DNA from: Candidatus Saccharicenans sp.
GTDB taxonomy: Bacteria; Acidobacteriota; Aminicenantia; Aminicenantales; Saccharicenantaceae
Direction of reading: 5' to 3'
DNA length: 64,000 nucleotides
Assembly (NCBI GenBank): GCA_030018265.1
Contig: JASEFX010000008.1
Location: 13,346 to 77,345, forward strand
Shown: one piece after another, positions 31,217-53,919 of the stretch
Numbering within the stretch: position 1 is the stretch's first letter
How the letters are laid out: every line of letters begins with the position of its first letter
Notes under the pieces: generated by a model
The model's input: only the letters and a program-made list of their open reading frames with translations
Databases searched by the model: none
Told to the model about the DNA's origin: nothing
Program-made: the position numbers and the translations under genes

Positions 31217-32777
31217 AAAATATTTCTGGTTTCAACGACTTCGTATTCTTACCCAGACTGTATTTTTTCTTCTCTTTTTCATTTTGCTGATGAAAACTCG
31301 TTATCCAGGAGAAGACTATCTGAATACCACGGTCGAGAGATTCTTCCATTTCGACCCGCTCATCCTGACCGCCACGCTGCTGGCTTCCAGAACTTTATAC
31401 GCAGCGTTGCTGCTTTCGCTGATCACGGTTGCCGCCACGCTATTTTTCGGTCGGTTTGTCTGCGGCTGGATCTGCCCTCTTGGCTCCATCCATCAATTTT
31501 TCTCGTTCATATTCAAGAAAAGCAAAATACTGAAACCGAAAAGAGACGACACGGCCAGCCTGGCACCCAAATATTTAATCCTGTTGATCGTGCTGGCTGC
31601 TGCTGCTTTTTCGGTTAACCTGGCCGGCTATCTTGACCCCCTCTCTTTTCTCTATCGTTCCTCAGCCGTTTTCCTCTCGCCGCTGCTGAACATGTTCCTC
31701 TCACACACCATCGAGCTGAGCTACTGGAGCGGGCTGAAAAGCCTGGGCCAGAATCTGAATCAGCTCAGCGGCAATCTGACCCTTAACAGCGTTTTCCAGA
31801 ATGCACTGGTTATCGGGATAGTTTTTCTCGGGGTACTGCTGCTCAATGCTTACAAAGAAAGATTCTGGTGCCGGTATCTGTGTCCAGCCGGCGCTCTGCT
31901 TGGGTTTTTATCCCGCTTCAACCTTTTCAAGCTGAAAATCGACCGGGAAAAATGTATCAACTGTCATCTCTGTTCCATTCACTGTCAGACAAACGCCAGA
32001 CCTTACCCTGAAGGGGAGTGGAGAAGTTCCGAATGTATCTACTGTGAAACCTGCGCCGCCATCTGTCCGACCGCCGCCATCTCCTTCCCCCTTAAATGGC
32101 AGGCTGAAAAAATCAAGGGTGTAGACTTAAACCGCCGCCGGGTGCTGCTTGCAGCCGTCGGCGGATTTCTTCTCGCGCCGGTTTTTAAGATAACGCCGCT
32201 GGCCCGGCGGGCTGCCAGTTCTATCATCAGGCCGCCCGGAGCTCTGCCCGAAGCAGAATTTCTCAGGCGCTGCGTGAAATGTGGAGAATGCATGAAGGTC
32301 TGTCCGACCAACGGTCTTCAGCCGGCTCTCGCTGAAGCCGGACCGGAAGGAGTCTGGACGCCGGTGCTGGTGCCGCGCATCGGCTACTGCGAGTATTACT
32401 GTTCTCTCTGCAGCCAGGTCTGTCCGACCGGAGCCATCAGGGAGCTGACGATAGAAGAAAAAGTTAACGTAAAGATAGGAACCGCCTGGGTGGATAAAAC
32501 TCGCTGCCTTCCTTATGCTCTGGGAAAGCCCTGCATCGTCTGCGAGGAACACTGTCCGGTTTCCCCGAAGGCTATTCAGCTGGTCAGGGTAGAAACCCTT
32601 ACACCCGACGGTCAGATAGCCACCAACCTCGCTCCGTTCGTCAATGTGGAAAGCTGCATCGGATGCGGCATCTGCGAGAATAAATGCGTGGTGCAGGACC
32701 TGCCCGCAATAAGGGTCACCAGCATCGGCGAACACCGGTCGCGTCAGAACCAGCTGATTCTTCCGCTGGTCGAATGA
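31176..32777 (+). CDS. Membrane-bound polyferredoxin (NapH/NosR-like CX3CP membrane domain + multiple 4Fe-4S motifs)
   Basis: 533 aa. Two membrane CX3CP motifs (CGWICPLG, CRYLCPAG). Six cytoplasmic-type cluster motifs (CINCHLCSIHC, CIYCETCAAICP, CVKCGECMKVCP, CSLCSQVCP, CIVCEEHCP, CIGCGICENKC). The start is uncertain because of a 41-nt overlap with the upstream gene. Confidence 0.8.
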   Translation: MNWRRSKLKRERSKKYFWFQRLRILTQTVFFLLFFILLMKTRYPGEDYLNTTVERFFHFDPLILTATLLASRTLYAALLLSLITVAATLFFGRFVCGWICPLGSIHQFFSFIFKKSKILKPKRDDTASLAPKYLILLIVLAAAAFSVNLAGYLDPLSFLYRSSAVFLSPLLNMFLSHTIELSYWSGLKSLGQNLNQLSGNLTLNSVFQNALVIGIVFLGVLLLNAYKERFWCRYLCPAGALLGFLSRFNLFKLKIDREKCINCHLCSIHCQTNARPYPEGEWRSSECIYCETCAAICPTAAISFPLKWQAEKIKGVDLNRRRVLLAAVGGFLLAPVFKITPLARRAASSIIRPPGALPEAEFLRRCVKCGECMKVCPTNGLQPALAEAGPEGVWTPVLVPRIGYCEYYCSLCSQVCPTGAIRELTIEEKVNVKIGTAWVDKTRCLPYALGKPCIVCEEHCPVSPKAIQLVRVETLTPDGQIATNLAPFVNVESCIGCGICENKCVVQDLPAIRVTSIGEHRSRQNQLILPLVE

Positions 32778-40865: not shown

Positions 40866-40895
40866 TTGACAATAACTTTTTTATTTTAATATACT
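40866..40895 (+). promoter_or_regulatory. Sigma-70-type promoter (TTGACA-N18-TATACT) of the hydrogenase operon
   Basis: Consensus -35 at 40866-40871 and -10 at 40890-40895. Only 9 nt to the ATG at 40905, with no SD. Confidence 0.5.
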
Positions 40896-40904
40896 CATAA
40901 ACTC

Positions 40905-42335
40905 ATGAAAGCCGAAACCATAACTCTTCTAACCATCTTCATTCCGGTATTGGGTTCGCTGCTGGTGCCCCTGGCTGGATCCATCTCGCCCAGGGTTCGT
41001 TCCGCGTGGGCCGTTCTGCTCGGCGCGGTCACCGCTTTCCTGCCGCTCACGCTTATTCCTCAGGCGACGAAGGGCGGAGAAATCATCTGGTCCAGGAGCC
41101 TGGCGCTGGGTCTGGATTTTATCCTGGTTATCGATCCCCTGGCCATTTTCATGGCGATCGTTTCCTCGTTCATAGGGTTCCTGATCATCATCTACTCTCT
41201 CGGTTACATCCACCACGAAGAGCATCAGAATGAATACTACCTGATGGTCATCCTGTTCATCGGCTCGATGATGGGTCTGGTGTTCTCGGGCAGCCTGGTG
41301 TTCATGTACCTGTTCTGGGAGATCATCGCCATCGCCTGCTGGCGGTTGATAGGCTTTTACCGGCAGAAGGATTACATTCTGAAAGCGGACAAAGCCTTCC
41401 TGGTCACTTTCGGCGGCGCCGTGGTCATGCTGCTCGGCTTCATCGTCATCTACGGGCAGACCGGAACTTTCAACCTGACCCAGATGCGCGGGGTTTTCAT
41501 TCCCGGCACCGCCGTTCTGCTGATTCTGTTCGGAATGTTCTCCAAATCCGCGACCGTGCCGCTGCATACCTGGCTGCCTGATGCCGGTGTGGCGCCGACG
41601 ACGGTCACCGCCCTGCTGCACGCGGCCGTGCTGGTTAAAATCGGCGTTTATGCCTATGCTCGCCTTTTCCTGTACACCTTCAAAATACCCCCTGAATGGC
41701 AGCAGGCGATTATCATCCTGGCAGTTCTTTCCAGCCTGATTTCAGCCGGGGCCGCTACGGTGGAAAATGACCTGAAAAGAATCCTGGCTTACTCGACGGT
41801 GAGCCAGATAGGATATATTTTCCTCGGACTAAGCGTGGCGACGCCAACAGCCATCTCCGGCGCTCTGCTTTACATCCTGATGCACGGGCTGGCCAAGGCC
41901 GGTCTGTTCCTCTGCGCCGGGATTGTCATTCACGCAACTCATAAAAGAGATATCAGGGAGATGGGCGGGTTGATAAAAACCATGCCCATCACCGCGATTT
42001 CATTCCTGATTTGCGCCTTTTCGGTCATCGGACTGCCGCCGCTGGGCGGGTTCTTCTCGAAACTGCTGGTTATCGTCGGAGCGGTTCAGGCTGACCAGGT
42101 CTGGGTAGCTGCGCTGGCGCTTTTTACCGCTGTCCTGACAATGTTTTACCTGCTCCGGGTGTTCGCAGCGGTCTTCCTGGGCGAACTTAAGATTCCCGCT
42201 CCGGAGAAAACTCCTTCGATGGTCGGAGTGGTAACCGTCCTGGCCGTGCTCTCTGTCGTGGCCGGCCTGCTGGTAACCTATCCGATGAAACTCGTCCAGG
42301 TGGCAACAACTCACATAAGCTGGTGGCTAAGATGA
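40905..42335 (+). CDS. Antiporter-like subunit (NuoN/NuoM/MrpD family) of the group-4 hydrogenase complex
   Basis: 476 aa, about 14 TM. Proton_antipo_M signature PLHTWLPDAGVAPTTVTALLHAAVLVKIGVY. Confidence 0.85.
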   Translation: MKAETITLLTIFIPVLGSLLVPLAGSISPRVRSAWAVLLGAVTAFLPLTLIPQATKGGEIIWSRSLALGLDFILVIDPLAIFMAIVSSFIGFLIIIYSLGYIHHEEHQNEYYLMVILFIGSMMGLVFSGSLVFMYLFWEIIAIACWRLIGFYRQKDYILKADKAFLVTFGGAVVMLLGFIVIYGQTGTFNLTQMRGVFIPGTAVLLILFGMFSKSATVPLHTWLPDAGVAPTTVTALLHAAVLVKIGVYAYARLFLYTFKIPPEWQQAIIILAVLSSLISAGAATVENDLKRILAYSTVSQIGYIFLGLSVATPTAISGALLYILMHGLAKAGLFLCAGIVIHATHKRDIREMGGLIKTMPITAISFLICAFSVIGLPPLGGFFSKLLVIVGAVQADQVWVAALALFTAVLTMFYLLRVFAAVFLGELKIPAPEKTPSMVGVVTVLAVLSVVAGLLVTYPMKLVQVATTHISWWLR

Positions 42336-44200
42336 ACTCAACAATTTTACTCTGGCCCATTCTGTTTCCGGCCGCGATGGCCGTGGTGTTGCTTTTAATC
42401 CCTTCCCGGATCAAATTCCTGAGAGAAATACTCGCGGTGCTGAGCTCGGGTGTCCTTCTCTATCTTGGCTTCCGTCTGTTTGCCGTAAAAAACCTCTCGG
42501 TGGTCAGGGACTGGCTTGGCAACGGCATCAATTTTGACCTTAAGCTCTACCACTTCTCCGCCTTTATCCTCCTGGCTCTGGCCGGATTTCTCTTCCTGAT
42601 CTGCCTTTATTCCACGGTAAAAATGCAGAACCATCCGCGGATCCGGGAATATTATGCTTATGTTTTCCTGGCAGCCGCTTTTTCCAACGGCGCGGTGCTG
42701 GCCAACAATTTCATCCTGCTGGTGTTTTTCTGGGAGGCCCTGCTGATCACAACCTATGCTCTGGTAACTCTCGGGCTTAAGCCCACCTCGCACCGCACCG
42801 CGGTTAAATCGTTGATCATAGGCGGCTTCTGCGACTTCGCCATGATCCTGGGCATCGGGATTCTGTGGGCTTCCACCGGAACCCTGACGATGGATAAAAT
42901 CCAGGTGGAACCGCACGGGCTGACGGTGGTCGCTTTTATCCTGATGATGATCGGGGCGATCGGTAAGGCCGGAGCCATGCCATTCCACACCTGGATACCT
43001 GACGCGGCTCTCGACGCCCCGGTGAGCTTCATGGCCTTCATGCCGGCTTCTTTTGAAAAACTTCTGGGAATTTATCTTCTCGCCCGGATTACGCTGGACT
43101 TCTTCGAACTTAAAGTCGGAAGCGGGCTCTCTATCCTTCTGATGATTATCGGAGCGGCCACCATAGTGTTTGCCGTTTTTATGGCTCTTATTCAGAAAGA
43201 TTTCAAGAAGCTGCTTTCATTCCATGCAGTCAGCCAGGTGGGTTATATGGTGCTCGGCGTGGGAACTGCCATTCCCATCGGGATTGCCGGCGGCATTTTC
43301 CATATGATCAACCACGCCATGTACAAGTGCGGCCTGTTCCTCAGCTCCGGCTCGGTAGAACACCGGACGGGGACGACAGAACTGAAAAAACTCGGCGGAC
43401 TCGCCCGGGAAATGCCCTGGACGGCGGCCGGTTTTGTGGTCTGCGCTCTGGCCATTTCCGGCGTCTGGCCGCTTAACGGTTTTGTCTCCAAGGAAATGGT
43501 TTTTCACGGCGCGCTGGAAACCGGCTATCCGATTTTTGCCATTGCCGCCTGGGTGGGAGCTATTTTCACCTTCGCTTCTTTCCTTAAAGCCGGACATTCC
43601 GTCTTCTTCGGTCCGCGCTCGACCGAGGTGCCCCGAACAAAAGAAAGCGAGGCTCCGATCGTTCTGCCGATTCTCATTCTGGCAGCACTCTGCATTACCT
43701 TCGGCGTGTACAACAAGCTCCCGCTGGAAAATTTCATACAGCCGATTCTGGCCGGGCATCCGGAAGCCGGAGAACATCTTGATTTCACCTCCCATGCGCT
43801 TGACCTGTTCAACCCGGTGGCCGGGGTTTCCATTCTCTGCCTGATCATCGCTCTGGGGATTCATCTTTACGGCTGGAATCGCAGCGGCAAAAAAGCCTAT
43901 CTGGCTTCTGAACCAATCCACAATCTGCCGGTTCTCCGCAAACTTTATGACCTTTCGGAAGCCCGTTTCTTTGACCTTTACGAGCAGGGCGTGAAGTTAC
44001 TGCAGGGACTTTCCAGAGTGCTTTTCAGGTTTATCGACCGGCCGATTGATTATCTTTACGAAAAAGTGGTTACTGCGGTCGGCCGTTCCTTTACCGGCCT
44101 GCTGCAGAAAGCCCATAACGGCCAGTATGCCAATTATCTGGCCTGGACCATCGGCGGCCTGGTGGTCGTCGTCTGGATAATTCTTCAGTTAGTGAAATAG
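42332..44200 (+). CDS. NuoL-like antiporter subunit with a C-terminal lateral-helix-type extension
   Basis: About 622 aa. The ORF opens at a GTG at 42323, and the ATG at 42332 forms an ATGA overlap. Motif FHTWIPDAALDAPVSFMAF. The C-terminus (long amphipathic stretch, then HNGQYANYLAWTIGGLVVVVWIILQLVK) resembles the NuoL helix HL plus last TM. Confidence 0.8.
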   Translation: MNSTILLWPILFPAAMAVVLLLIPSRIKFLREILAVLSSGVLLYLGFRLFAVKNLSVVRDWLGNGINFDLKLYHFSAFILLALAGFLFLICLYSTVKMQNHPRIREYYAYVFLAAAFSNGAVLANNFILLVFFWEALLITTYALVTLGLKPTSHRTAVKSLIIGGFCDFAMILGIGILWASTGTLTMDKIQVEPHGLTVVAFILMMIGAIGKAGAMPFHTWIPDAALDAPVSFMAFMPASFEKLLGIYLLARITLDFFELKVGSGLSILLMIIGAATIVFAVFMALIQKDFKKLLSFHAVSQVGYMVLGVGTAIPIGIAGGIFHMINHAMYKCGLFLSSGSVEHRTGTTELKKLGGLAREMPWTAAGFVVCALAISGVWPLNGFVSKEMVFHGALETGYPIFAIAAWVGAIFTFASFLKAGHSVFFGPRSTEVPRTKESEAPIVLPILILAALCITFGVYNKLPLENFIQPILAGHPEAGEHLDFTSHALDLFNPVAGVSILCLIIALGIHLYGWNRSGKKAYLASEPIHNLPVLRKLYDLSEARFFDLYEQGVKLLQGLSRVLFRFIDRPIDYLYEKVVTAVGRSFTGLLQKAHNGQYANYLAWTIGGLVVVVWIILQLVK

Positions 44201-44210
44201 AGGAGGAGCG

Positions 44211-45689
44211 GTGGTTTTTTCATTCATTGTCATACCGTTACTGTTGGCTGCCTTTCTGCCTCTTATCGGTAAATTTTCAAAAAAATTGCTGCCTGATCTG
44301 TTGACTAACGCCGCTCTGGCTTACCTGGTGTTCAACTCGATCCTGCTGATCAAGACGATCTTCAACCGGGGGGTTCTCATCCAGAATCTCAGCTGGTTCG
44401 GGGAAACAGTTAACCTTCAGGTAGCGCTTGACAGTTTTAACCTGTTCATGCTGTTCACGATTTCGCTGGTGAGTCTGTGCATTTCGCTCTTCTCGGTCGA
44501 CTATCTCGAACACTACGGACACAGGTCCACTTTCTACGCGCTTTTCCTGGTGATGATCGCCGGGATGAACGGGCTGGTGCTCGTCCCCGACCTTTTCTCC
44601 ATCTACCTGTTCCTGGAAGTGGCGGCTGTCGCTTCTTACGCTCTGGTAGCCTTCGGGTTGGGTTACGACGAGCTGGAAGCGTCCTTCAAGTACCTGATGC
44701 TCTCGGTGGTGGCTTCAGCTTTTGCCCTTCTGAGCATTACGGTGATTTTCGGGTTGACCGGAAGCCTGAACTTTCAGGCTGTCGCTCAGGGACTGCAGGA
44801 TCTCGGCGCCAGATCAGTGCTGGGAGTTTGCGTGGCTTTCTTCATAATGGGCTTTGGACTGAAGGCGGCGCTGATTCCGTTCCATGCCTGGTTGCCTGAC
44901 GCCCACCCTTCAGCTCCGGCTCCAATTTCCGCCATGCTGTCCGGCCTGTTAATCAAGGTGTCCGGAATCTATGCGCTTTTCAGAATAATTTACAGCGTGA
45001 TCGGCATCACTCCGGCGCTGAGCCAGATTTTGATGGCCCTGGGAACGATCTCGATGGTGGCTGCGGCTCTCCTGGCGCTCGGGCAGAAAGATATCAAGAG
45101 AATGCTGGCCTATTCGTCCATCAGCCAGGTGGGCTACATAGTTCTCGGCCTGGCTCTGGGCACACCGCTCGGGATCGCTGGAGCTCTTTTCCATCTGTTC
45201 AATCACGCGGTAGCCAAAGGATTGCTGTTCTTGAATTCCGGCTCGATTCAGCATATCACCGGAACCAGAAATTTAGATGAACTGGGCGGCCTGGGCAAAG
45301 TTGTGCCGGTGACCGCCGGCACCAACCTGGTCGGAGCGCTTTCGATTGCCGGCGTGCCGCCGCTGGCTGGATTCTGGAGCAAATTGATCATAATCATGGC
45401 CCTGATTCAGGCCAAAGAATTCGCTTACGCGCTCGTAGCGATTCTGGCCAGCGTCTTAACCCTCTGGTATTATCTTCTGATTCAGAGAAAAGCCTTTTTC
45501 GGCCGGGTGAGCGAAAAGTGGGCACAGGTAAACGAAGCTCCTTTCTGGATGTCGGCCGCGAATGTGCTGCTGGCTCTGATATGCATTCTGGCCGGTATTT
45601 TCTTTACTCCGATCTTCAGAACCTGGATTTCTCCAGCGGCTGAAGCGCTCGCCAGGGGAATTCAGGCGGTTCTCATGTGGGGATTGTGA
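44211..45689 (+). CDS. Antiporter-like subunit (NuoM/NuoN/MrpD family)
   Basis: 492 aa, GTG start preceded by AGGAGG. Motif FHAWLPDAHPSAPAPISAMLSGLLIKVSGIY. Confidence 0.85.
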   Translation: MVFSFIVIPLLLAAFLPLIGKFSKKLLPDLLTNAALAYLVFNSILLIKTIFNRGVLIQNLSWFGETVNLQVALDSFNLFMLFTISLVSLCISLFSVDYLEHYGHRSTFYALFLVMIAGMNGLVLVPDLFSIYLFLEVAAVASYALVAFGLGYDELEASFKYLMLSVVASAFALLSITVIFGLTGSLNFQAVAQGLQDLGARSVLGVCVAFFIMGFGLKAALIPFHAWLPDAHPSAPAPISAMLSGLLIKVSGIYALFRIIYSVIGITPALSQILMALGTISMVAAALLALGQKDIKRMLAYSSISQVGYIVLGLALGTPLGIAGALFHLFNHAVAKGLLFLNSGSIQHITGTRNLDELGGLGKVVPVTAGTNLVGALSIAGVPPLAGFWSKLIIIMALIQAKEFAYALVAILASVLTLWYYLLIQRKAFFGRVSEKWAQVNEAPFWMSAANVLLALICILAGIFFTPIFRTWISPAAEALARGIQAVLMWGL

Positions 45690-45690
45690 T

Positions 45691-46179
45691 ATGGTAATAC
45701 AAATAATTCTTCTATGCGGCCTGGTAATTTTTTCAGGACTGGCCATCCTGCTCAGGGACCTGATTAAAGCCGCTCTGTCGCTGGCTGTGGCCAGCCTGAT
45801 TCTCGGTATCATCTTCTTTCGCCTGTCAGCACCCTATGCCGGAGTTTTCGAGATTTCGGTGGTCGCCGGTCTGATCACCGTGCTGTTCGTCCTGACGATT
45901 GCTCTGACAAAGAAAGGCGATGAGGTGGCGGAAGCCCGTCTGGTGAAAATGGCTTTTCCGATTTTCCTGATTCTTTTCCTGATCATCGACGGTCTGGTGA
46001 TGAAATCCCTGCTGCAGAAAATTCCGGCTCTCCCCTCAGGACCTGAGGCTGGTGCCTTTGGAGATGTTCTCTGGAAGCAGAGAACTTTCGACCTGGTAGC
46101 CCAGATCGGGGTCATTCTGGCAGGCGTGCTGGCCGTTCTGGCCTTATTCCGGAAAAAGGAAGAAGACGGAGATGAGTAA
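45691..46179 (+). CDS. NuoJ-like (ND6 / MbhD-MnhB related) membrane subunit
   Basis: 162 aa. APYAGVFEISVVAGLITVLFVLTIAL aligns by eye with E. coli NuoJ AYFAGALEIIVYAGAIMVLFVFVVMM. The C-terminal TM is also similar. Confidence 0.65.
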   Translation: MVIQIILLCGLVIFSGLAILLRDLIKAALSLAVASLILGIIFFRLSAPYAGVFEISVVAGLITVLFVLTIALTKKGDEVAEARLVKMAFPIFLILFLIIDGLVMKSLLQKIPALPSGPEAGAFGDVLWKQRTFDLVAQIGVILAGVLAVLALFRKKEEDGDE

Positions 46180-46480
46180 TCTGTGGTTTCTTTACATATT
46201 CTTTTCTGCCCTGCTGATATTCATCGGCCTGTATTGTTTGCTGACGATGCGCAACCTGATCAGGTTGTTTATCGCCGTGGAAGTCATCAGCAAGGGCGTG
46301 AGCCTGGCCATCGTGGCCACGGGCGCGGTTAAAAACAACATCCTTCTGGCCCAGAGTCTGGTCATCACCTACATCGTGGTGGAAGTGGCTCTGGTGGCCA
46401 CCGCCCTGGCTCTGATCATCAACATTTACAAAAAGAATAAGAGTCTGGATGTTCGTCTGCTGTCCAGACTTAAGGGGTAA
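46172..46480 (+). CDS. NuoK-like (ND4L / MnhC / MbhG) membrane subunit
   Basis: 102 aa, 3 TM. Conserved membrane Glu residues (FIAVEVISKG; VVEVALVATALAL) and the C-terminal tail SLDVRLLSRLKG. Confidence 0.8.
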   Translation: MSNLWFLYIFFSALLIFIGLYCLLTMRNLIRLFIAVEVISKGVSLAIVATGAVKNNILLAQSLVITYIVVEVALVATALALIINIYKKNKSLDVRLLSRLKG

Positions 46481-46483
46481 GCG

Positions 46484-46816
46484 ATGAAAGGACTGCAATT
46501 TTTGCTATCTCCGCCAGTTGCCTTCTTCTTCTTCCTGGGTGTGGCTTATCTGCTATACGCCCTCGGCCGGGCTATGGCTCCCGGACTCAACCGGACCCCC
46601 GGCAAGCTGGCCAGCTACGCCTGCGGTGAGGACATCCCTGGAGAAAAAGTGCAGTTCGGCTACCGGCTGTTTTTTGTCTTCGCTCTGTTCTTCACCATCA
46701 TGCACGTGGCCGCCCTGGTAATTGCCACTATTCCGATCGGGAAAATAGTATATTTGGGTATAATATATTTAGCAATCATATTCCTGGCCATTGTGGCCCT
46801 GATAGCGAGGGACTGA
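46484..46816 (+). CDS. NuoA/ND3-like (or MbhI-like) small membrane subunit
   Basis: 110 aa, 3 TM. The loop motif SYACGEDIPG resembles the Y-E-C-G loop of NuoA. Confidence 0.5.
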   Translation: MKGLQFLLSPPVAFFFFLGVAYLLYALGRAMAPGLNRTPGKLASYACGEDIPGEKVQFGYRLFFVFALFFTIMHVAALVIATIPIGKIVYLGIIYLAIIFLAIVALIARD

Positions 46817-46817
46817 C

Positions 46818-47243
46818 ATGCTTAATAAACTGGTTCACTGGTCCCGGTTGAAATCACCCTGGATACTTCACCTTAACACCGGAGCCTGCAACGCCTGTGA
46901 CATCGAGGTGGTGGCGGCTCTGACACCCCGGTTTGACGTGGAGAGGTTTGGCATCCTGCTGAAGGCTACTCCCCGCCACGCTGACGTCATCATCTGCACC
47001 GGCCCGGCCACCAGACAGATGAAAGACCGGTTGATCCGGATTTACGAGCAGACTCCGGACCCGAAATTTGTCATCGCCGTCGGGGCCTGCGCCATGTCCG
47101 GCTGCGTTTACCGCGGGGCCTACAACGTCATCGGCGGTATCGATCAGGTCATCCCGGTCGACGTGTACGTTCCCGGTTGTCCGGTGCGCCCGGACGCGGT
47201 CATCGACGGGGTGGTAAAACTTCTCAACAAGCTTAAGGGATGA
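46818..47243 (+). CDS. [NiFe] hydrogenase small subunit, NuoB-like (single proximal 4Fe-4S)
   Basis: 141 aa. Four Cys ligands in the group-4/NuoB pattern (GACNACDIEV ... GACAMSG ... PGCPVRP). Confidence 0.9.
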   Translation: MLNKLVHWSRLKSPWILHLNTGACNACDIEVVAALTPRFDVERFGILLKATPRHADVIICTGPATRQMKDRLIRIYEQTPDPKFVIAVGACAMSGCVYRGAYNVIGGIDQVIPVDVYVPGCPVRPDAVIDGVVKLLNKLKG

Positions 47244-47250
47244 GGCAAAC

Positions 47251-47724
47251 ATGAACGACCAGATTCTGATGGAGAAAGCTCAGGCCAGTCTGGGGAATAA
47301 AATCCTGGCGCTGACCAACCCGGCCCCCCGCCGGATTTTCCTGAAAGTGGCGCCGGAAAATCTGCTGGAAACCGTCGGCTGGCTTAAGAATGAAATCGGG
47401 TTCACGCACCTTTCAACCATCAGCGGGGTGGACCTGGGACAGACCTTTGAAGTTCTCTATCATTTCGCCAACGATTTTACCTGCCTTACCCTCAGAACAG
47501 AGATCCCGCGAGAGAACCCGCTGCTGCCGAGCATCTGCGAGTTGATTCCGGGAGCCATCCTTTACGAAAGAGAACTGCAGGATATGTTTGGCATAGTCGT
47601 GCAAAATATACCAGATGGCCGGCCGCTGGTGCTTCCTGACGGCTGGCCTGCGGGCAATTATCCCTTAAGAAAAGACTGGAAATACAAAAGACCGCCGGAA
47701 GTCATTCCTGGAGGAAACAAATGA
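47251..47724 (+). CDS. NuoC-like (30-kDa) subunit
   Basis: 157 aa. Complex1_30kDa-type C-terminal pattern ERELQDMFGIVVQNIPDGRPLVLPDGWP. Confidence 0.85.
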   Translation: MNDQILMEKAQASLGNKILALTNPAPRRIFLKVAPENLLETVGWLKNEIGFTHLSTISGVDLGQTFEVLYHFANDFTCLTLRTEIPRENPLLPSICELIPGAILYERELQDMFGIVVQNIPDGRPLVLPDGWPAGNYPLRKDWKYKRPPEVIPGGNK

Positions 47725-48923
47725 AGTTTCAGATACCGATCGGACCGCAACATCCGGCCTTAAAAGAGCCCATCGGCCTGCGCATAACGGTCGAGGGAGA
47801 AATCATTCGCGATGCAGACCTCCGGCTCGGCTACAATCACCGGGGGCTGGAAAAGCTGGCTGAACAGAAAACCTGGATTCAGAACATCTACCTCGCTGAA
47901 CGCATCTGCGGCATCTGCTCTCATTCCCATACGACCTGTTACGTTCAGGGTGTGGAAAAGTTGATGGAGCTGGAACCGCCAAAACGCGGCCTGTACATCC
48001 GCACGCTGGTGGCCGAACTTGAAAGGGTCCACAGCCATCTCCTCTGGCTCGGCGTGGCCGGGCACGAAGCCGGTTTTGACAGCTTCTTCATGTACACCTG
48101 GCGCGACCGGGAAATAGTCATGGACATACTCGAGACGATCACCGGAAACCGCGTTCACTACGGCATCAACACTATCGGCGGGGTCCGGCGCGACCTGGAC
48201 GAAATGCAGGTCAAGCACATACTGGATTCGCTCGAGATATTGAGGAAACGCAGCGAATACTACAGGAACCTCGGGACGACCGAGCCCAGCTTCGTGGCCA
48301 GGCTGGCTGGCGTTGGCTATCTCTCTCCTGAAGATGCGGTGGCGCTCTGCGCCGTCGGACCAACGCTCAGGGCCTCCGGCATCGCCAGGGACGTGCGCAA
48401 AGATGATCCTTATGCGGTGTATGAGGAAGTTCCTTTTGAAGTCTGCACCGCCGACACCTGCGATGTCCTCGGCCGGGCTGTTGTCCGCATTAAGGAACTT
48501 TTCCAGAGTTATAACATAATCGAGTATCTGCTGAAGAATCTGCCGGCCGGGCCGATAGCCGTTAGGGCTCCCAGAAGAGCGAAACCGAACGAAGTGGTCA
48601 GCCGCTATGAAGCGCCGCGAGGAGAAAATATCCACTACATAAAGAGCAACGGCACTGATAAACCCGAGCGGTTGAAAGTGCGGGCTCCGACTCTGGCCAA
48701 CTATGCGGCCACCATCAAGATGCTCAAGAACGGGTTCATCGCCGACGTGCCGCTGATCTTCGCGGCCATCGACCCCTGCATCTGCTGCGCCGAGCGCGCG
48801 GTCTCGGTGGTTGATGCCAGGTCTGGAGAAGAAAAAATAATCCCGATGAACACCCTGAAACAACTGAGTCAAAAAATTTCATACGGGAAAGAAAAAAAGA
48901 GGGTAGCAGAATGGCCACTGTGA
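47721..48923 (+). CDS. Group-4 [NiFe] hydrogenase large subunit (NuoD-like) with both Ni-Fe Cys pairs and a C-terminal extension
   Basis: 400 aa. N-terminal RICGICSHSH and C-terminal DPCICCAER motifs, followed by 41 further residues. Confidence 0.92.
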   Translation: MKFQIPIGPQHPALKEPIGLRITVEGEIIRDADLRLGYNHRGLEKLAEQKTWIQNIYLAERICGICSHSHTTCYVQGVEKLMELEPPKRGLYIRTLVAELERVHSHLLWLGVAGHEAGFDSFFMYTWRDREIVMDILETITGNRVHYGINTIGGVRRDLDEMQVKHILDSLEILRKRSEYYRNLGTTEPSFVARLAGVGYLSPEDAVALCAVGPTLRASGIARDVRKDDPYAVYEEVPFEVCTADTCDVLGRAVVRIKELFQSYNIIEYLLKNLPAGPIAVRAPRRAKPNEVVSRYEAPRGENIHYIKSNGTDKPERLKVRAPTLANYAATIKMLKNGFIADVPLIFAAIDPCICCAERAVSVVDARSGEEKIIPMNTLKQLSQKISYGKEKKRVAEWPL

Positions 48924-49882
48924 ATACTCTGATTTATCTAATCATTTATCCGGGTCTTCTGTTCCTGTTCCTCTATTCCACCTTTGTCGAGTGGTACGAC
49001 CGTAAACTCTATGCCCGTTTCCAGAACCGCATGGGCCCCACCCATACGGGAAAATTCGGGCTGCTGCAGCCGATAGCCGACTTCTTCAAGCTGATGGCAA
49101 AAGAAGACATCGTTCCTGAAAGAGCAGACCGGAAAATGTTCTCTGCTCTTCCGGCATTTGGTCTGGCCATAGTTTTCACCGCGATGCTGTTAATCCCCGT
49201 CTGGAATTACAGCCTGGACCGTCCTTCGGTTATCTCTTTCAGCGGCGACATAATCGTTGTGCTTTATCTGCTGAGCCTTCCGACTTTTATCTTTTTCCTG
49301 GCCGGCTGGTCGTCAACCAACCTGTTCTCGATCGTTGGCGGAGCCAGGGTTCTCACCATGCTTTTCGGCTATGAAGTGCCTCTGTTCCTGGCGGTGCTGA
49401 GCCCGGCTGTTCTGGCCAATTCCTGGCGTCTGGCGGAAATCGCCGCTTTCTACCGCCAGCACCCGGCGCTCATTCCGGTGAATCTGCTGGGTTTTGTGAT
49501 CGCCCTGATCTGCGTACAGGCAAAGCTGGAAAGAACGCCGTTTGATATTCCGCACGCCGAGACCGAGATAGTCGGCGGAACTTTCACCGAATACTCCGGC
49601 AAAAAGCTGGCGATATTCCGGTTGATGATGGACGCCGAGATGGTCGTGGCCGCAGGTCTGCTGGCAACAGTTTTTCTCGGCGGTTTTCCCGGCGGCCCGC
49701 TCCTCGGGCTGATAAACTTCATCGTCAAAACTTTATTCGTCATATTTTTCCTGGCGTTAATCCGGGCGACAACTTCCAGAATCAGGGTTGATCAGGTGGT
49801 CACCTTTTCCTGGAAGTATCTGGCTCCGCTGGCCGTCCTTCAGCTACTCATTACCATCCTGGTTAAGGGGTTAATCTCATGA
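48911..49882 (+). CDS. NuoH-like (HycD/MbhM/EchB) membrane subunit
   Basis: 323 aa, about 8 TM. N-terminal pattern ERKLYARFQNRMGPTHTGKFGLLQPIADFFKL is typical of NuoH/ND1. Confidence 0.9.
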   Translation: MATVNTLIYLIIYPGLLFLFLYSTFVEWYDRKLYARFQNRMGPTHTGKFGLLQPIADFFKLMAKEDIVPERADRKMFSALPAFGLAIVFTAMLLIPVWNYSLDRPSVISFSGDIIVVLYLLSLPTFIFFLAGWSSTNLFSIVGGARVLTMLFGYEVPLFLAVLSPAVLANSWRLAEIAAFYRQHPALIPVNLLGFVIALICVQAKLERTPFDIPHAETEIVGGTFTEYSGKKLAIFRLMMDAEMVVAAGLLATVFLGGFPGGPLLGLINFIVKTLFVIFFLALIRATTSRIRVDQVVTFSWKYLAPLAVLQLLITILVKGLIS

Positions 49883-50274
49883 AGATCGGAGTATTCATTC
49901 CCGAATTGCTGCGTCACCTCTTTAAGAAACCGGCAACTGTGGACTATCCCTTTGAAAAGCTCGAAGTGCCGCGCGGTTTTAGAGGTTCGCCCTACCTGAG
50001 ACCGGAACTCTGCATCGTCTGCCGGGCCTGCGAGCGTGACTGCCCGGCCGAAGCTATTGAAATCACCGCGATAAATGAGGCTGAAAAAAGATTCAGGATG
50101 ATTATCCATAACGACCGCTGCATTCACTGCGCTCAGTGCGTCGATTCCTGCCCGACCGAGGCGATGCTGATGGACGACCGTTTTGAAATATCGGACTACA
50201 GCCGGCTAAACCTGAAGATGGAATGGGAATACGTGCGGGCGGTGGTCAAGCCGAAATCCGAACAGAAAAGCTGA
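49879..50274 (+). CDS. NuoI-like 2x[4Fe-4S] ferredoxin subunit (HycF/MbhN/EchF)
   Basis: 131 aa. CIVCRACERDCP and CIHCAQCVDSCP. Confidence 0.9.
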   Translation: MKIGVFIPELLRHLFKKPATVDYPFEKLEVPRGFRGSPYLRPELCIVCRACERDCPAEAIEITAINEAEKRFRMIIHNDRCIHCAQCVDSCPTEAMLMDDRFEISDYSRLNLKMEWEYVRAVVKPKSEQKS

Positions 50275-50365
50275 TCGGAAATTTTGTCTGAAAAAATTTG
50301 TCTTGATTCGGGGGGGAGAAAAATATAAATTAATTCTAATCCCTGAATGACAGAGGGAAGGGCGG

Positions 50366-50881
50366 ATGGCCGTGAAATGGGTTCAATTCCTCAGAAAAGA
50401 GCTCCGGAGCGTGGAGAAGCTTCTGGTGCTTGGAACCGGCAACGCCCTGAAAGCGGACGATGCCGCCGGCCTTCTGGTAGCCAGCATCCTGGAAAACCTT
50501 CTTACCAGAAGACAGAAATCAAAGGTCAAAGTGTTGCGTGTCTACGAATTGATCGACACTTACAGCCGACGGGTTAAACGTTTGAAGCCTTCTCATTTAA
50601 TCATCGTCGACGCTCTGGACATGAAAAAAACTCCAGGAACGATCATGGTGACCAGATTGCAGCCAGAAAGCGGAAAAGGGAAGAAAAAGGTTGGACTGGA
50701 ATTTGCGAAATTTCTGGAAAATCTAACTTCTGAGCTTTCCTGCAAGGTTATCTTTATCGGAATACAGCCGGCCTCTTTAGATTTTGGACATCCGATAACC
50801 CAGCCGATAAGAGAGGCCTGTCGCCAGGTGTCCGAGGCCATTGCCGTGATGACCACAGGTCAGCCGGCTAAATCTTCATAG
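50366..50881 (+). CDS. hycI: Hydrogenase maturation endopeptidase (HycI/HyaD family)
   Basis: 171 aa. LLVLGTGNALKADDAAGLLVA and HLIIVDALD motifs (Ni-binding Asp residues) and adjacency to the hydrogenase genes. Confidence 0.8.
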   Translation: MAVKWVQFLRKELRSVEKLLVLGTGNALKADDAAGLLVASILENLLTRRQKSKVKVLRVYELIDTYSRRVKRLKPSHLIIVDALDMKKTPGTIMVTRLQPESGKGKKKVGLEFAKFLENLTSELSCKVIFIGIQPASLDFGHPITQPIREACRQVSEAIAVMTTGQPAKSS

Positions 50882-51965
50882 GCATAAGCACGTAAAAATA
50901 AACTCCCTCAGGCTCGGACTCAGGCTTTATCAACACCGCGCTGTTCTCATCCTTTATTTCAAAAATAACCCGGTCGCAGGACACTGTTTCCATAAAATCG
51001 AGGAGATACTGAGAATTGAAACCAATCTCCATATCCTTTCCTCTGTATTCAACCGTGAGCTTATCCCTGGCTTCGCCAAACTCCGGGTTGGAAGAGAATA
51101 ACCTTAGCTCGTCACCACTGAGGTCAAACTTTATTCCTTTCGATTTCTCAGAGGAAAGGATGGCTACTCTTTTAATAGCCCTGATAAGAGCTTCTTTATC
51201 AACGGTCAGAATGTTGGGATTATCTCTGGGAATTACTGCCTGATAATTGGGAAATTTGCTCTCAATAATCCGGCTTATTAAAACTCTGTTGTTAACCCGG
51301 AAATAAAGGCTGTTGTCGTCAAAATCAAAATCCACTTTTTCGTTTTCAAACTTTTTAAGCTCATTCAGTGTTTTTTTGGAAACTATCTGGTTCACTTCCT
51401 TATCAACATTTAACCCTTCAAATTCTCTCTTTGTGTAAGAAAGGCGGTGCCCGTCTGTGCTTACCAGCTCAAGCTGATTTTTTTTGATCGAAAGAAGCGC
51501 GCCACTGAGATAGTAGCGCTGCTCCTGGGTAATGGCGTATAAAACACAATCTATCATCTCTTTGAAATCTGAGAAATTCCACGATATTCCCTTTTCAAAA
51601 TCTGAAGCCTGGATTTCAGGAAAATCCTCTTCTGAGGCGGTTAGAACCTTTATTTCACTTTCGCCGCTCCTGACTATTAAGTGTTCATCTTTCTTTATAA
51701 ACTCTATTTCCTGATCCTCGGGCAATAATTTTATGAACTCAAAAAGTCTTCTGCCATTAACTGCGGCCCGTCCGTCGGTGCGGACATCTGCCTCAAATTT
51801 TGTTCTCAGACCCACTTCCAGGTCAGTGCCCATCATTTCCACCGTTCCTTTCGTCGCTCTGATCATAATACTGGAGAGAATCGGCATGGTCGTCCTTTTT
51901 TCCACAATCCCCTGAAGAAGGCTTAATTCGTTGATAATGTTGTTTTTAGAAGTTATAAACCTCAT
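50868..51965 (-). CDS. dnaN: DNA polymerase III beta sliding clamp
   Basis: About 365 aa starting MRFITSKNN at the ATG at 51965, which is preceded by AAGGTGG. The track's GTG at 51974 adds 3 aa. Ends ..YVLMPMKI. The gene is very AT-rich. Confidence 0.95.
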   Translation of the reverse strand: MRFITSKNNIINELSLLQGIVEKRTTMPILSSIMIRATKGTVEMMGTDLEVGLRTKFEADVRTDGRAAVNGRRLFEFIKLLPEDQEIEFIKKDEHLIVRSGESEIKVLTASEEDFPEIQASDFEKGISWNFSDFKEMIDCVLYAITQEQRYYLSGALLSIKKNQLELVSTDGHRLSYTKREFEGLNVDKEVNQIVSKKTLNELKKFENEKVDFDFDDNSLYFRVNNRVLISRIIESKFPNYQAVIPRDNPNILTVDKEALIRAIKRVAILSSEKSKGIKFDLSGDELRLFSSNPEFGEARDKLTVEYRGKDMEIGFNSQYLLDFMETVSCDRVIFEIKDENSAVLIKPESEPEGVYFYVLMPMKI

Positions 51966-52082
51966 TTTTTCCACCTTTCCTTATTCTTCATAATATAATC
52001 AATTTAAGCTAAAAGGCAATTAAAAAAATAATACATTGTTTCAAGAATATGTGAATATCTATTCCTTTTGTGTTGATAATCA

Positions 52083-53414
52083 TTACTTTAGCAGCTTAAT
52101 CATTTTGTTGATTTCTCTGTTAAATTCCGGGTCCTTCTCTCTTAATTTCTCAATTTTCCTTATACTGTGAAGAACTGTCGTATGGTGCTTGCCGCCAAAT
52201 TTCTTCCCTATTTCTGGAAGAGAACTGTCGGTGAGCTCTTTAGTCAGATACATGGCTACCTGTCTGGGAAAAGAAACTCTGGGTGAATTGTTTTTTGATT
52301 TAATCTCAGATAGCTTGATTTTGTACTGATTGCAGACAACTTTCTGTATTTTTTCGATGGTAATCACATTGGTTTCAGCGTCAAGTAAACCCCTCAGGGC
52401 TTCACGAGCCAGGTCCAGGTCTATTGGAGCTCCTTTAAGAGAAGCGAAGGCGATCACCCTTCTAAGGTAACCTTCCAGTTCTCTTATGTTCGAATGTACT
52501 TTATCGGCGATGTACAGTGCGACAGCCTCGGGAAGAGATATGTTCTCAAGCTCAGCTTTTTTCTTAAGAATGGCGATTCTGGTTTCGATGTCCGGTGGTT
52601 TCAGGTCGGCAATCAATCCCCACTCAAAGCGCGAGCGGAAACGTTCTTCCAGATGGGGAATGTCCTTTGGCGGGCAGTCACTCGAAATGACAATCTGTTT
52701 CTGGCTATCATAAAGATGGTTGAAGGTATGGAAAAATTCTTCCTTCGTTCTCTCCCGGCCTGAAATGTAGTGGATATCATCCATCAGCAGAACGTCAACT
52801 GCCCGGTATTTCTGACGGAATTCAAGAATTTTTCCGTACTGCAGGTGGTTGATCAGCTCATTCATGAACCTCTCGGTGGTAACATAAAGCACCTTCAGCC
52901 TGGGATTGTTGTTCATGATATAATGGCCGATGGCGTTCATAAGATGGGTTTTCCCGAGTCCAGCTCCACCGTAGATGAAAAGCGGGTTGTAAGATTTAGC
53001 CGGATTCTTGGCGACTGCGACGGCAGCCGCGTGAGCGAACTGGTTGCAGTTGCCGACGACAAAATTTTCAAAAGTGTAATTTGGGTTAAGGTTAGCCACC
53101 ACAGTGATGGCCTGGTGGAGTTTCCTTTCTTCGGGTGAGTTTCTAAGGAATGATGTCGGGGTTTCATCATAGATAAATTTTATTTCGAATACTTTGTTAA
53201 ATATTTCCTGAGAACATTCATTTATAAGTCTGGAATAATGAAAGCTCAGCCAGTCCTTGAAGTAGGAATTTGGCACCTTGATGTAAAGCGTTTCGCCTTC
53301 TGCTCCGATGTAGGAGGTTGGCTCAAACCAGGTTTCAAAAGCCTGACTTTCCACCCGGCTTTTTACTGCCGCCAGTATCTTATTCCAGGGATTAGTTTTA
53401 TCTTCGACCTTCAT
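52083..53414 (-). CDS. dnaA: Chromosomal replication initiator DnaA
   Basis: About 443 aa starting MKVEDKTNPWNKIL. The track start at 53474 would place the DnaA boxes in the coding sequence. Walker A GGAGLGKTHL, Walker B LLMDDIHY, and domain IV KHHTTVLHSIRKIE. Confidence 0.95.
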   Translation of the reverse strand: MKVEDKTNPWNKILAAVKSRVESQAFETWFEPTSYIGAEGETLYIKVPNSYFKDWLSFHYSRLINECSQEIFNKVFEIKFIYDETPTSFLRNSPEERKLHQAITVVANLNPNYTFENFVVGNCNQFAHAAAVAVAKNPAKSYNPLFIYGGAGLGKTHLMNAIGHYIMNNNPRLKVLYVTTERFMNELINHLQYGKILEFRQKYRAVDVLLMDDIHYISGRERTKEEFFHTFNHLYDSQKQIVISSDCPPKDIPHLEERFRSRFEWGLIADLKPPDIETRIAILKKKAELENISLPEAVALYIADKVHSNIRELEGYLRRVIAFASLKGAPIDLDLAREALRGLLDAETNVITIEKIQKVVCNQYKIKLSEIKSKNNSPRVSFPRQVAMYLTKELTDSSLPEIGKKFGGKHHTTVLHSIRKIEKLREKDPEFNREINKMIKLLK

Positions 53415-53427
53415 GACTGCCCGAAAG

Positions 53428-53459
53428 ATTTCCACAGATTTTTCCACAACTGTGGAAAA
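53428..53459. promoter_or_regulatory. Cluster of three DnaA-box-like 9-mers (ATTTCCACA, TTTTCCACA, inverted TGTGGAAAA)
   Basis: Boxes at 53428-53436, 53440-53448 and 53451-53459. The last two form the palindrome TTTTCCACAACTGTGGAAAA, 14-45 nt upstream of the preferred dnaA start. Each has 1-2 mismatches to TTATCCACA. Confidence 0.55.
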
Positions 53460-53658
53460 ATACCCCGTCGACACAGGAAACGGGGGAAATGCTGAAAAAT
53501 ATTAGCACCTTGAAGCATAAAATTCAAGAAAAATTTTTACAACTGTCGTGAAAAAAATGGCTCCGGGTGCCCGCCTTTAGGTCTGCTGACAGAATTTAAT
53601 CGCTGAACAATAGCATGAACGCCGGATAAGTCCATTCCGGGCCTGTCAATCTCTGGAG

Positions 53659-53687
53659 TTGCAAGCCTGAAAGATTTGTGATATAAG
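53659..53687 (+). promoter_or_regulatory. Candidate promoter (TTGCAA-N17-TATAAG) of rpmB
   Basis: -35 at 53659-53664 and -10 at 53682-53687, with about a 40-nt leader to the rpmB ATG. Confidence 0.4.
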
Positions 53688-53727
53688 ATTAAAATCATCA
53701 GAAAATCGTTAGAAAGCGAGAACGACC

Positions 53728-53919
53728 ATGGCCAGAGAATGTGATATCTGTCATAGAGGCCCGATTTTCGGTTTGAGCCGGAGCCATTCGAACAGGGCTT
53801 CACGCAAGAAATGGAGTGTCAACCTGCAGAGAGTCAGAGCCCGGACGGAAAGCGGAGTGAGAAGAATCTGGGTCTGCACCCGCTGCCTTCGCTCCGGGAA
53901 GGTGCAGAAAGCCGTCTGA
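53728..53919 (+). CDS. rpmB: 50S ribosomal protein L28
   Basis: 63 aa. MARECDICHRGPIFGLSRSHSNRASRKKWSVNLQ is typical of L28. Confidence 0.95.
   Translation: MARECDICHRGPIFGLSRSHSNRASRKKWSVNLQRVRARTESGVRRIWVCTRCLRSGKVQKAV

Follow-up and report, generated by a model that had tools for sequence, protein, structure and literature searches.

A complete bacterial group 4 [NiFe] hydrogenase with complex I-type subunits in Candidatus Saccharicenans

A cluster of twelve genes in Candidatus Saccharicenans sp. encodes an enzyme that its metal-ligand motifs identify as a group 4 [NiFe] hydrogenase with the subunit types of respiratory complex I. The cluster lies at 40905–50881 on the + strand of the stretch analysed here, 64,000 nucleotides of contig JASEFX010000008.1 (assembly GCA_030018265.1), which we call the window and whose numbering is used throughout. 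A preliminary description made from the sequence alone had listed eleven complex I-type genes followed by a gene for a HycI-like protease, and all twelve were recovered with Pfam and NCBIfam models. The enzyme is a complete bacterial member, with a permuted gene order, of a kind that has already been described and named and is biochemically uncharacterised; its subunit set makes it the bacterial equivalent of the Hfo hydrogenase of archaea.

The catalytic subunits

The homologue of complex I subunit NuoD is the hydrogenase large subunit (400 amino acids (aa); 47721–48923, +) and matches both Complex1_49kDa and NiFeSe_Hases. It contains the motifs RICGICSHSH (L1) and DPCICCAER (L2), which keep both Ni-Fe cysteine pairs and conform to the definitions given for group 4 [NiFe] ligands, C[GS][ILV]C[AGNS]xxH for L1 and [DE][PL]CxxCxx[DE][RL] for L2 (PMC7886697). 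The preliminary description had placed these motifs correctly: in alignments with E. coli HycE (E 1e-87) and P. furiosus MbhL (E 3e-85) the cysteines coincide with the Ni-Fe ligands of both proteins. Furthermore, a 41-aa stretch C-terminal of DPCICCAER aligns with the C-terminal tail of HycE. In E. coli, HycI cuts off this tail once the metal has been inserted. A gene for a HycI-type maturation endopeptidase (171 aa; 50366–50881, +; Pfam HycI 37.6 bits, cut-off 23) closes the cluster, and both the tail and the protease gene that mark group 4 enzymes are therefore present, whereas the cleavage step itself is one that we infer. The Ni-Fe cysteine pairs and the tail in a NuoD homologue thus identify a group 4 [NiFe] hydrogenase and not a ligand-less Ehr or Mbx complex. 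Taken with the adjacent HycI gene, they point to an active Ni-Fe site.

These features are not peculiar to the window. When one genome of each GTDB species was scanned, at least 600 stretches matched, 599 of which were confirmed as relatives; the best 80 loci (large-subunit identity 50–90%) were analysed, with open reading frames (ORFs) labelled by iterative hidden Markov model (HMM) searches. Both motifs and a tail of 27–50 aa occur in almost all of the 82 related large subunits from these 80 loci, and in most of the loci the HycI gene closes the cluster in the same position.

The other subunits of the peripheral arm agree with this assignment. The NuoB-like hydrogenase small subunit (141 aa; 46818–47243, +; Oxidored_q6 E 9.5e-32) exceeds the cut-off of the NuoB subfamily model (167 against 116 bits) and has the CxxC...GACA...GCP cysteines for one [4Fe-4S] cluster, and the NuoI-like subunit (131 aa; 49879–50274, +; Fer4 family matches) has two CxxCxxCxxxCP motifs for two such clusters. 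A NuoC-like subunit (157 aa; 47251–47724, +; Complex1_30kDa E 4.8e-30) and a NuoH-like membrane anchor (323 aa; 48911–49882, +; NADHdh E 8e-88) complete the set. The occurrence of NuoB-, NuoI- and NuoH-like subunits together in one operon is itself a feature by which group 4 enzymes are recognised.

We also considered whether the hydrogenase has been misread and is really a ferredoxin- or NADH-dependent reductase of quinone or another acceptor, an 11-subunit enzyme of the complex I, Fpo-like or Mbx-Mbs type. Many relatives go under the database name NADH-quinone oxidoreductase subunit D or L, and the NuoD equivalog of NCBIfam is the best model for the D subunit, at 343 bits. However, this score lies under the model's cut-off of 360, the four Ni-Fe cysteines that align with HycE and MbhL are lost in NuoD and FpoD (PMC7886697), and a conserved tail with a dedicated HycI would be purposeless in such an enzyme. 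We consider this alternative highly improbable, and the view that the NuoD homologue belongs to a hydrogenase, rather than to a quinone reductase or an Ehr/Mbx complex, was borne out.

The L2 motif (48776–48802) has a CxCC form, with an extra cysteine adjacent to a Ni-Fe ligand. All 12 Aminicenantes-type loci (L001–L012) share this form, as do two loci from Bathyarchaeia (L061 and L064); in most other clade members L2 reads DPCFSCTDR. A similar CYCC motif occurs in the Atribacteria HunG hydrogenase (bioRxiv 10.1101/536078).

The membrane arm

Subunits were assigned with Pfam, NCBIfam and PDB sequence searches, and the small subunits also with family profiles. The results support the presence of homologues of all 11 complex I subunits outside the NADH module. 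As had been described, three of these (476, about 622 and 492 aa) match Proton_antipo_M. Antiporter-like subunit 1 (476 aa; 40905–42335, +; E 4.9e-75, with a Proton_antipo_N match) has a NuoL/HyfD-like core, its best NCBIfam models being NuoL (330 bits) and HyfD, and lacks a C-terminal extension. Antiporter-like subunit 3 (492 aa; 44211–45689, +; E 1.7e-69) is MrpD/NuoM/NuoN-like, with MrpD and NuoM/N types as its best NCBIfam models. The middle subunit, subunit 2 (622 aa; 42332–44200, +; E 1e-54), is of the L type and matches the NuoL and PRK08668 models. Its mechanical ORF is 625 aa long and begins at a GTG; the homologues have 622 aa, and we therefore place the start at the ATG at 42332, which overlaps the stop of the upstream gene.

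The long C-terminal extension of subunit 2 had been likened to the lateral helix of NuoL, and several observations agree with this. The NuoL HMM aligns over residues 10–621, PRK08668 (MbxH'/MbsH') likewise over the full length, and NuoL of M. smegmatis also aligns. An AlphaFold2 monomer model built from 25 homologues (pLDDT, the predicted local distance difference test score, 71; pTM, the predicted template modelling score, 0.75) has a 14-transmembrane (TM) core, a TM helix at 495–517 (TM15), a 60-residue helix at 533–592, where pLDDT is ~55–60, and a terminal helix at 598–621 (TM16). The top full-length Foldseek matches of this model are NuoL, from the mycobacterial and E. coli complexes I, and MrpA. 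Moreover, residues 545–590 combine a mean hydrophobicity near zero with a high helical hydrophobic moment and are strongly amphipathic, while residues 599–621 are hydrophobic. Subunit 2 is thus predicted to carry an L-type lateral helix followed by a terminal TM helix.

All three antiporter-like subunits retain the charged residues of the family. In subunit 2, E135, K212, K243, H324 and K387 align with E128, K217, K248, H336 and K399 of MbsH' (PDB 6U8Y chain X), residues that form a proton path in structural work on MBS and MBH (PMC8165549). The 476- and 492-aa paralogues have the same set, a Glu in TM5 and Lys or His in TM7, TM8, TM11 and TM12.

Two of the small membrane subunits gave less clear single-sequence results and were tested again with profiles of 22–25 family members from the related loci. 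For the 110-aa A-like subunit (46484–46816, +), which has a YACGED loop motif and reaches 22.0 bits with Oxidored_q4 (cut-off 23.3), the family profile found ND3/NuoA/NdhC chains (25 in all, best E 6e-6), whereas MbhI reached only E 0.39; Oxidored_q4 was matched by 19 of the 25 family members, and Y45 and G48 do not vary within the family. For the 162-aa J-like subunit (45691–46179, +; Oxidored_q3 38 bits, MbhD 33 bits), every family member (22/22) matched Oxidored_q3. The N-terminal half of its profile found MbsD (1e-12), MbhD (2e-11) and E. coli NuoJ (1e-6), with E54 aligned to E58 of MbsD, and the C-terminal part found MbsE (0.012). Given these matches to MbhD/MbsD and MbsE as well as to NuoJ, we regard the chain as a NuoJ that unites the counterparts of MbhD and MbhE in one polypeptide. 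The J-type and A-type assignments of the preliminary description therefore stand. A reading of the 110-aa and 162-aa subunits as only MbhI- or MnhB-like was ruled out by the same searches. The remaining small subunit (102 aa; 46172–46480, +) is NuoK/MrpC/MbhG-like (Oxidored_q2 E 8e-19, with matches to the NuoK and MrpC models), and two membrane Glu, E37 and E71, can be read from its sequence.

Relatives and comparison with known systems

The closest matches come from Ca. Saccharicenans and Aminicenantes metagenome-assembled genomes (MAGs), in which the large subunit is 93–77% and the L-type subunit 99% identical; neighbouring families reach at most 56% in an exhaustive search of 50%-identity cluster representatives. 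To compare layouts, we denote antiporter-like genes by P, the long L-type gene by PL and the others by their Nuo-type letters. The order P-PL-P-J-K-A-B-C-D-H-I, with or without a final HycI, is found in ~45 of the 80 best loci, from roughly ten phyla, under labels that include Aminicenantes, Sedimentisphaerales/Phycisphaerae, Omnitrophota, Bacillota, Elusimicrobiota, Spirochaetota/Brevinematales, Margulisiibacteriota, Acidobacteriota/Holophaga and Coriobacteriia. Most of the remaining loci are truncated at contig ends. Other arrangements are J-K-PL-P-P-A-...-I in a Caldisericota MAG; A-B-C-D-H-I-J-K-P-PL-P, the nuo/fpo order with the long subunit again in the middle, in Bathyarchaeia (L046 and L062); and J-K-PL-P-A-B-C-D-H-I-HycI, with two antiporter-like genes, in a Methanoregula MAG and in Anaerolineae, among them the isolates Longilinea arvoryzae and Leptolinea tardivitalis. 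The two-antiporter variant was seen at loci L066, L067, L070, L073, L074, L077 and L079.

In the set used for a rough neighbour-joining tree, the window large subunit is 51–57% identical to its relatives, 43% to MbhL and 41% to HycE. The tree shows Bathyarchaeia as a neighbouring clade, and with HycE and MbhL as its only named references it is too crude for subgroups; it also puts the long MbhL branch inside the clade, a placement that we treat as unreliable. Some MAG labels (L004–L006, L011, L029, L038 and L047) are at odds with sequence similarity and look unreliable as well. For instance, some "uncultured Eubacteriales" large subunits are 72–79% identical to the Aminicenantes protein, and others carry the labels "Patescibacteria group" and "Polyangiaceae".

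The large subunit thus falls in a big clade that routinely has the 11-gene layout with hycI, and enzymes of this type have been published, so that the novelty implied by the preliminary description does not hold. Loh, Herve and Brune (2021) described Hfo, an Fpo-like 11-subunit [NiFe] hydrogenase of Bathyarchaeia, as HydDB group 4g, lineage 4g-6, with similar clusters in Pyrodictium delaneyi and Ca. Methanomethylicus; they interpreted it as a ferredoxin-coupled and ion-coupled hydrogenase without the Na+ module of Mbh, and proposed that it links hydrogenases to complex I more closely than Mbh does (PMC7886697). HydDB also places the enzyme of Bathyarchaeota BA1 in 4g, a group listed as putatively ferredoxin-coupled (PMC5037454) that is polyphyletic and biochemically uncharacterised (PMC5037454; PMC13582414). 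In Asgard archaea, complex I-like group 4 [NiFe] hydrogenases were reported by Valentin-Alvarado et al. (2024; PMC11291895), and Appler et al. (2024) found complexes resembling complex I in Heimdallarchaeia in which the active Ni-Fe NuoD is kept (bioRxiv 10.1101/2024.07.04.601786); a full lateral helix in such Asgard enzymes was described in the same year (PMC11291895; bioRxiv 10.1101/2024.07.04.601786). For bacteria, the papers found give only general labels and make no remark on this architecture: members from Elusimicrobia were catalogued as "Mbh-Mrp type" (bioRxiv 10.1101/765248), a Saganbacteria enzyme was noted for antiporter-like subunits without an oxidoreductase module (PMC6349859), those of Omnitrophota and Cloacimonadota were labelled "group 4g" (PMC8542988), and Aminicenantes MAGs were scored as having H2-evolving "group 4 NiFe-hydrogenases" (PMC10766756).

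The likeness to Hfo is close. Both have the 11 subunit types A, B, C, D, H, I, J and K plus three antiporter-like subunits, keep the Ni-Fe ligands, and lack the Na+ module (MbhABCF/MrpEFG) and an NADH or F420 input module; the window cluster encodes the 11 subunits that Nuo and Fpo have in common and no others, and no Na+ module, NuoEFG or FpoFO was found in the cluster or window. The Bathyarchaeia locus L046 also has its long L-type gene in the middle of three antiporter genes, and Hfo-type Bathyarchaeia large subunits, which are among the best 80 matches, are 54–56% identical to the window protein. The differences lie in the host, bacterial here, in the hycI gene attached at the operon end here, and in the order of the blocks, which is P-PL-P|J-K|A-B-C-D-H-I in place of the A-B-C-D-H-I|J-K|P-PL-P of Bathyarchaeia, so that the nuo/fpo gene order characteristic of Hfo (ABCDHIJKLMN) is not kept. 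By description, the Asgard enzymes also share a catalytically competent NuoD-type subunit, several NuoL/M/N-like subunits, the lack of NuoEFG and a proposed ferredoxin-to-H2 chemistry in a complex I-shaped enzyme (PMC11291895; bioRxiv 10.1101/2024.07.04.601786); in contrast to the window cluster, theirs are syntenic with genes for Hdr, a group 3c hydrogenase and ATP synthase.

More distant systems share parts of this architecture. The 14-subunit Mbh of P. furiosus (group 4d, PDB 6CFW) has a ferredoxin-type input through a NuoI-like subunit, the closest matches to the J-like N-terminus (MbhD), a large subunit 43% identical, and a K-like/I-like/J-K-L-M-N order that does correspond to the K-A-B-C-D-H-I order here, as had been proposed. 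However, it has one antiporter-like subunit (MbhH) where the window cluster has three, a Na+ module (MbhA-C, F) where no MrpE/F/G-like gene is found here, and MbhD and MbhE as separate chains where a single NuoJ-like chain is found here; the 110-aa subunit is NuoA-type and not MbhI-type. Complex I, the 11-subunit NDH-1 and Fpo-like enzymes share the 11 core families, the L-type lateral helix and the charged residues in antiporter-like, J and K subunits, and differ in that the D subunit here has Ni-Fe ligands and a presumably protease-cleaved tail in place of a quinone site; the enzyme here also has a short small subunit, another gene order and a far smaller driving force. Hyf of E. coli (group 4a) resembles the window enzyme in its three Proton_antipo_M subunits (HyfB, D and F), its NuoH/B/D/I homologues and its HycI-dependent maturation; at the sequence level we compared group 4a through HycE of hydrogenase 3, the solved group 4a enzyme, and not through HyfG. 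Hyf also has a fused NuoC-NuoD large subunit, the polyferredoxin HyfA, a formate dehydrogenase partner and HyfE, and lacks separate NuoJ- and NuoA-like subunits. These Hyf-specific features were not found here, where the C and D genes are separate and the cluster holds no polyferredoxin or formate dehydrogenase. Finally, Ech (group 4e) has six subunits, one of them antiporter-like (EchA), and none of the J, K or A type, in contrast to the eleven subunits, three of them antiporter-like, encoded here. The defining features of Hyf, Ech and Mbh are thus absent, in agreement with the earlier statement that the layout matches neither Hyc/Hyf nor Ech nor the classical Mbh-Mrp.

Electron donor, energetics and genomic setting

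To look for an electron-input module, we searched ~40 of the larger ORFs in the window with Pfam models. No homologue of NuoEFG, formate dehydrogenase, carbon monoxide dehydrogenase (CODH), HyfA or MrpEFG was found among them or in the cluster, as the preliminary description had stated; the scanned genes include parAB, mnmG/E, yidC, polA, dnaN, dnaA, relA, efflux systems and fatty-acid synthesis. No hyp genes were detected among these ORFs either. The genes inside the cluster overlap or lie at most 10 nt apart, with the exception of a 92-nt gap before hycI, and leave no space for additional ones. ORFs lying up to 4.5 kb from the cluster in the 80 related loci were then compared by all-versus-all BLAST, and no conserved donor module recurs within that distance. 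The genes that do recur there are hypF/hypD/hypE, in 4–7 loci, a gene for a membrane protein resembling a pyrophosphatase, in 9 loci, and housekeeping genes specific to a lineage. Because a dedicated donor module is missing, ferredoxin is the sensible donor, which backs the presumption made in the preliminary description.

The pyrophosphatase-like neighbours (L014, L016, L022, L024, L030, L031, L033, L034 and L052, from several phyla) look like H+/Na+-translocating pyrophosphatases on reading their sequences and could point to a shared ion economy. In the window itself, 8 kb upstream of the cluster (30332–32777), a DUF362 protein gene is followed by one for a 533-aa Fer4_5/4Fe-4S protein, a putative membrane polyferredoxin; this pair is not linked to the hydrogenase cluster in other loci.

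A module that oxidises NAD(P)H, formate or CO, encoded at another place in the genome and acting instead of ferredoxin as the direct donor, would have precedents in the group 4 enzymes FHL (formate hydrogenlyase), Coo, Hun and the Mbh-Mrp-oxidoreductase type (PMC6349859; bioRxiv 10.1101/536078; bioRxiv 10.1101/765248), and our view of the genome spans 64 kb. Known modular enzymes have their module genes within the operon, however, whereas here no module is found in the cluster or window or recurs beside the related clusters in many phyla, and the NuoI-like subunit is short (131 aa) and has no extra docking domain. A detachable module of this sort is therefore quite unlikely.

Based on these results and by analogy, we think it likely that the enzyme carries out ferredoxin-driven, ion-translocating H2 evolution and that the reaction is probably reversible. 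Ni-Fe insertion would be followed by HycI cleavage of the C-terminal tail of the large subunit. Reduced ferredoxin, supplied for example by pyruvate:ferredoxin oxidoreductase in a fermentative Aminicenantes host, would then reduce the two [4Fe-4S] clusters of the NuoI-like subunit, and the electrons would go on to the single NuoB-like cluster and to the Ni-Fe site of the NuoD-like subunit, where protons would be reduced to H2. Through the NuoH-, A-, J- and K-like subunits, this redox step would act on the three antiporter-like subunits, which the lateral helix of the 622-aa subunit probably clamps, and the outcome would be an outward movement of H+ or Na+. In the opposite direction, an ion gradient could drive ferredoxin reduction by H2.

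Several points weigh against this account. The clade has no biochemical characterisation, and the donor, direction, ion and stoichiometry are accordingly drawn by analogy with Mbh and Ech; genes for hypA-F, ferredoxin and pyruvate:ferredoxin oxidoreductase are not in the 64-kb window; the region of the lateral helix is modelled, in a monomer, with a pLDDT of only ~55–60; and four potential ion paths are hard to square with the small free energy between ferredoxin and H2. From standard potentials, ferredoxin at ~-500 mV would yield ~17 kJ per H2 at 1 bar H2 and ~40 kJ at 10 Pa, and moving one ion against 150–180 mV would cost ~15–17 kJ. The reaction could therefore pay for one or two ions per H2 and not for four, the number moved by complex I. 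The suggestion in the preliminary description that more ions per H2 might be translocated than by Mbh or Ech is thus left unsupported.

Sequence cannot tell the direction of the reaction, and the enzyme may run both ways. It could be argued that reverse operation is the normal mode, with a H+/Na+ gradient from ATP hydrolysis or another pump driving the uphill reduction of ferredoxin by H2 to feed CO2 fixation or acetogenesis. Loh et al. proposed that the homologous Hfo works in just this way in acetogenic Bathyarchaeia (PMC7886697), some Aminicenantes MAGs have been described as putative acetogenic heterotrophs (PMC6472368), and a multi-pump arm would favour the uphill direction, with several ions moving inward per H2 oxidised. 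On the other hand, Aminicenantes are treated as organotrophic or fermentative H2 producers (PMC10766756; PMC7509429), and no Wood-Ljungdahl genes were found among the larger ORFs scanned in the window. The title of the Ca. Saccharicenans genome paper of Kadnikov and colleagues, from 2019, reportedly calls the organism fermentative and saccharolytic. We judge reverse operation as the normal mode to be unlikely and favour ferredoxin-driven H2 evolution.

A three-pump arm on such a reaction may reflect another gearing, the use of only some of the modules, H+/Na+ exchange, or a fit for reverse ferredoxin reduction. We speculate, with little confidence, that throughout the bacterial P-PL-P-J-K-A-BCDHI clade a complete three-pump arm is combined with a reaction worth just one or two ions per H2, and that either the antiporter-like subunits are not all outward pumps or the enzyme is geared mainly for gradient-driven ferredoxin reduction. 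In that case one or two of the antiporter-like subunits might carry a return flow or H+/Na+ exchange without MrpEFG.

The operon stands next to replication-origin genes (50868–53900). It is flanked upstream by polA and a GNAT gene and downstream by dnaN, dnaA and relA/spoT; the 3' end of hycI overlaps that of dnaN convergently by 14 nt, with dnaA next. GC content falls to 0.44–0.45 at 50–54 kb, where the cumulative GC skew has its minimum (~50–52 kb), and parB, parA, mnmG, mnmE, jag and yidC, the usual origin-proximal set, lie at 0.4–7.7 kb, ~45 kb distant. Upstream of the first gene, a sigma-70-like promoter candidate at 40866–40895 (+) consists of TTGACA, an 18-nt spacer and TATACT; it is the region's best match, with 11 of 12 consensus positions. 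The candidate, a consensus match only, ends 9 nt 5' of the first ATG, and a Shine-Dalgarno sequence cannot be made out. It may be a chance match, or the operon may be transcribed with little or no leader.

The form with all 11 subunits is widespread among anaerobic bacteria, including Planctomycetota, and this locus provides a clean and complete bacterial example of a kind that has neither a solved structure nor a measured ion/H2 ratio and whose three-pump arm on a low-energy reaction poses an energetic puzzle. The two-pump and three-pump forms make up a natural series. If our speculation on the clade is right, these enzymes would offer a natural test of the number of antiporter modules against stoichiometry, and could be a closer living model of the transition from hydrogenase to complex I than Mbh. 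In fermenters and syntrophs, enzymes of this type connect energy conservation with H2 metabolism, and they are relevant to the origin of complex I from a hydrogenase.

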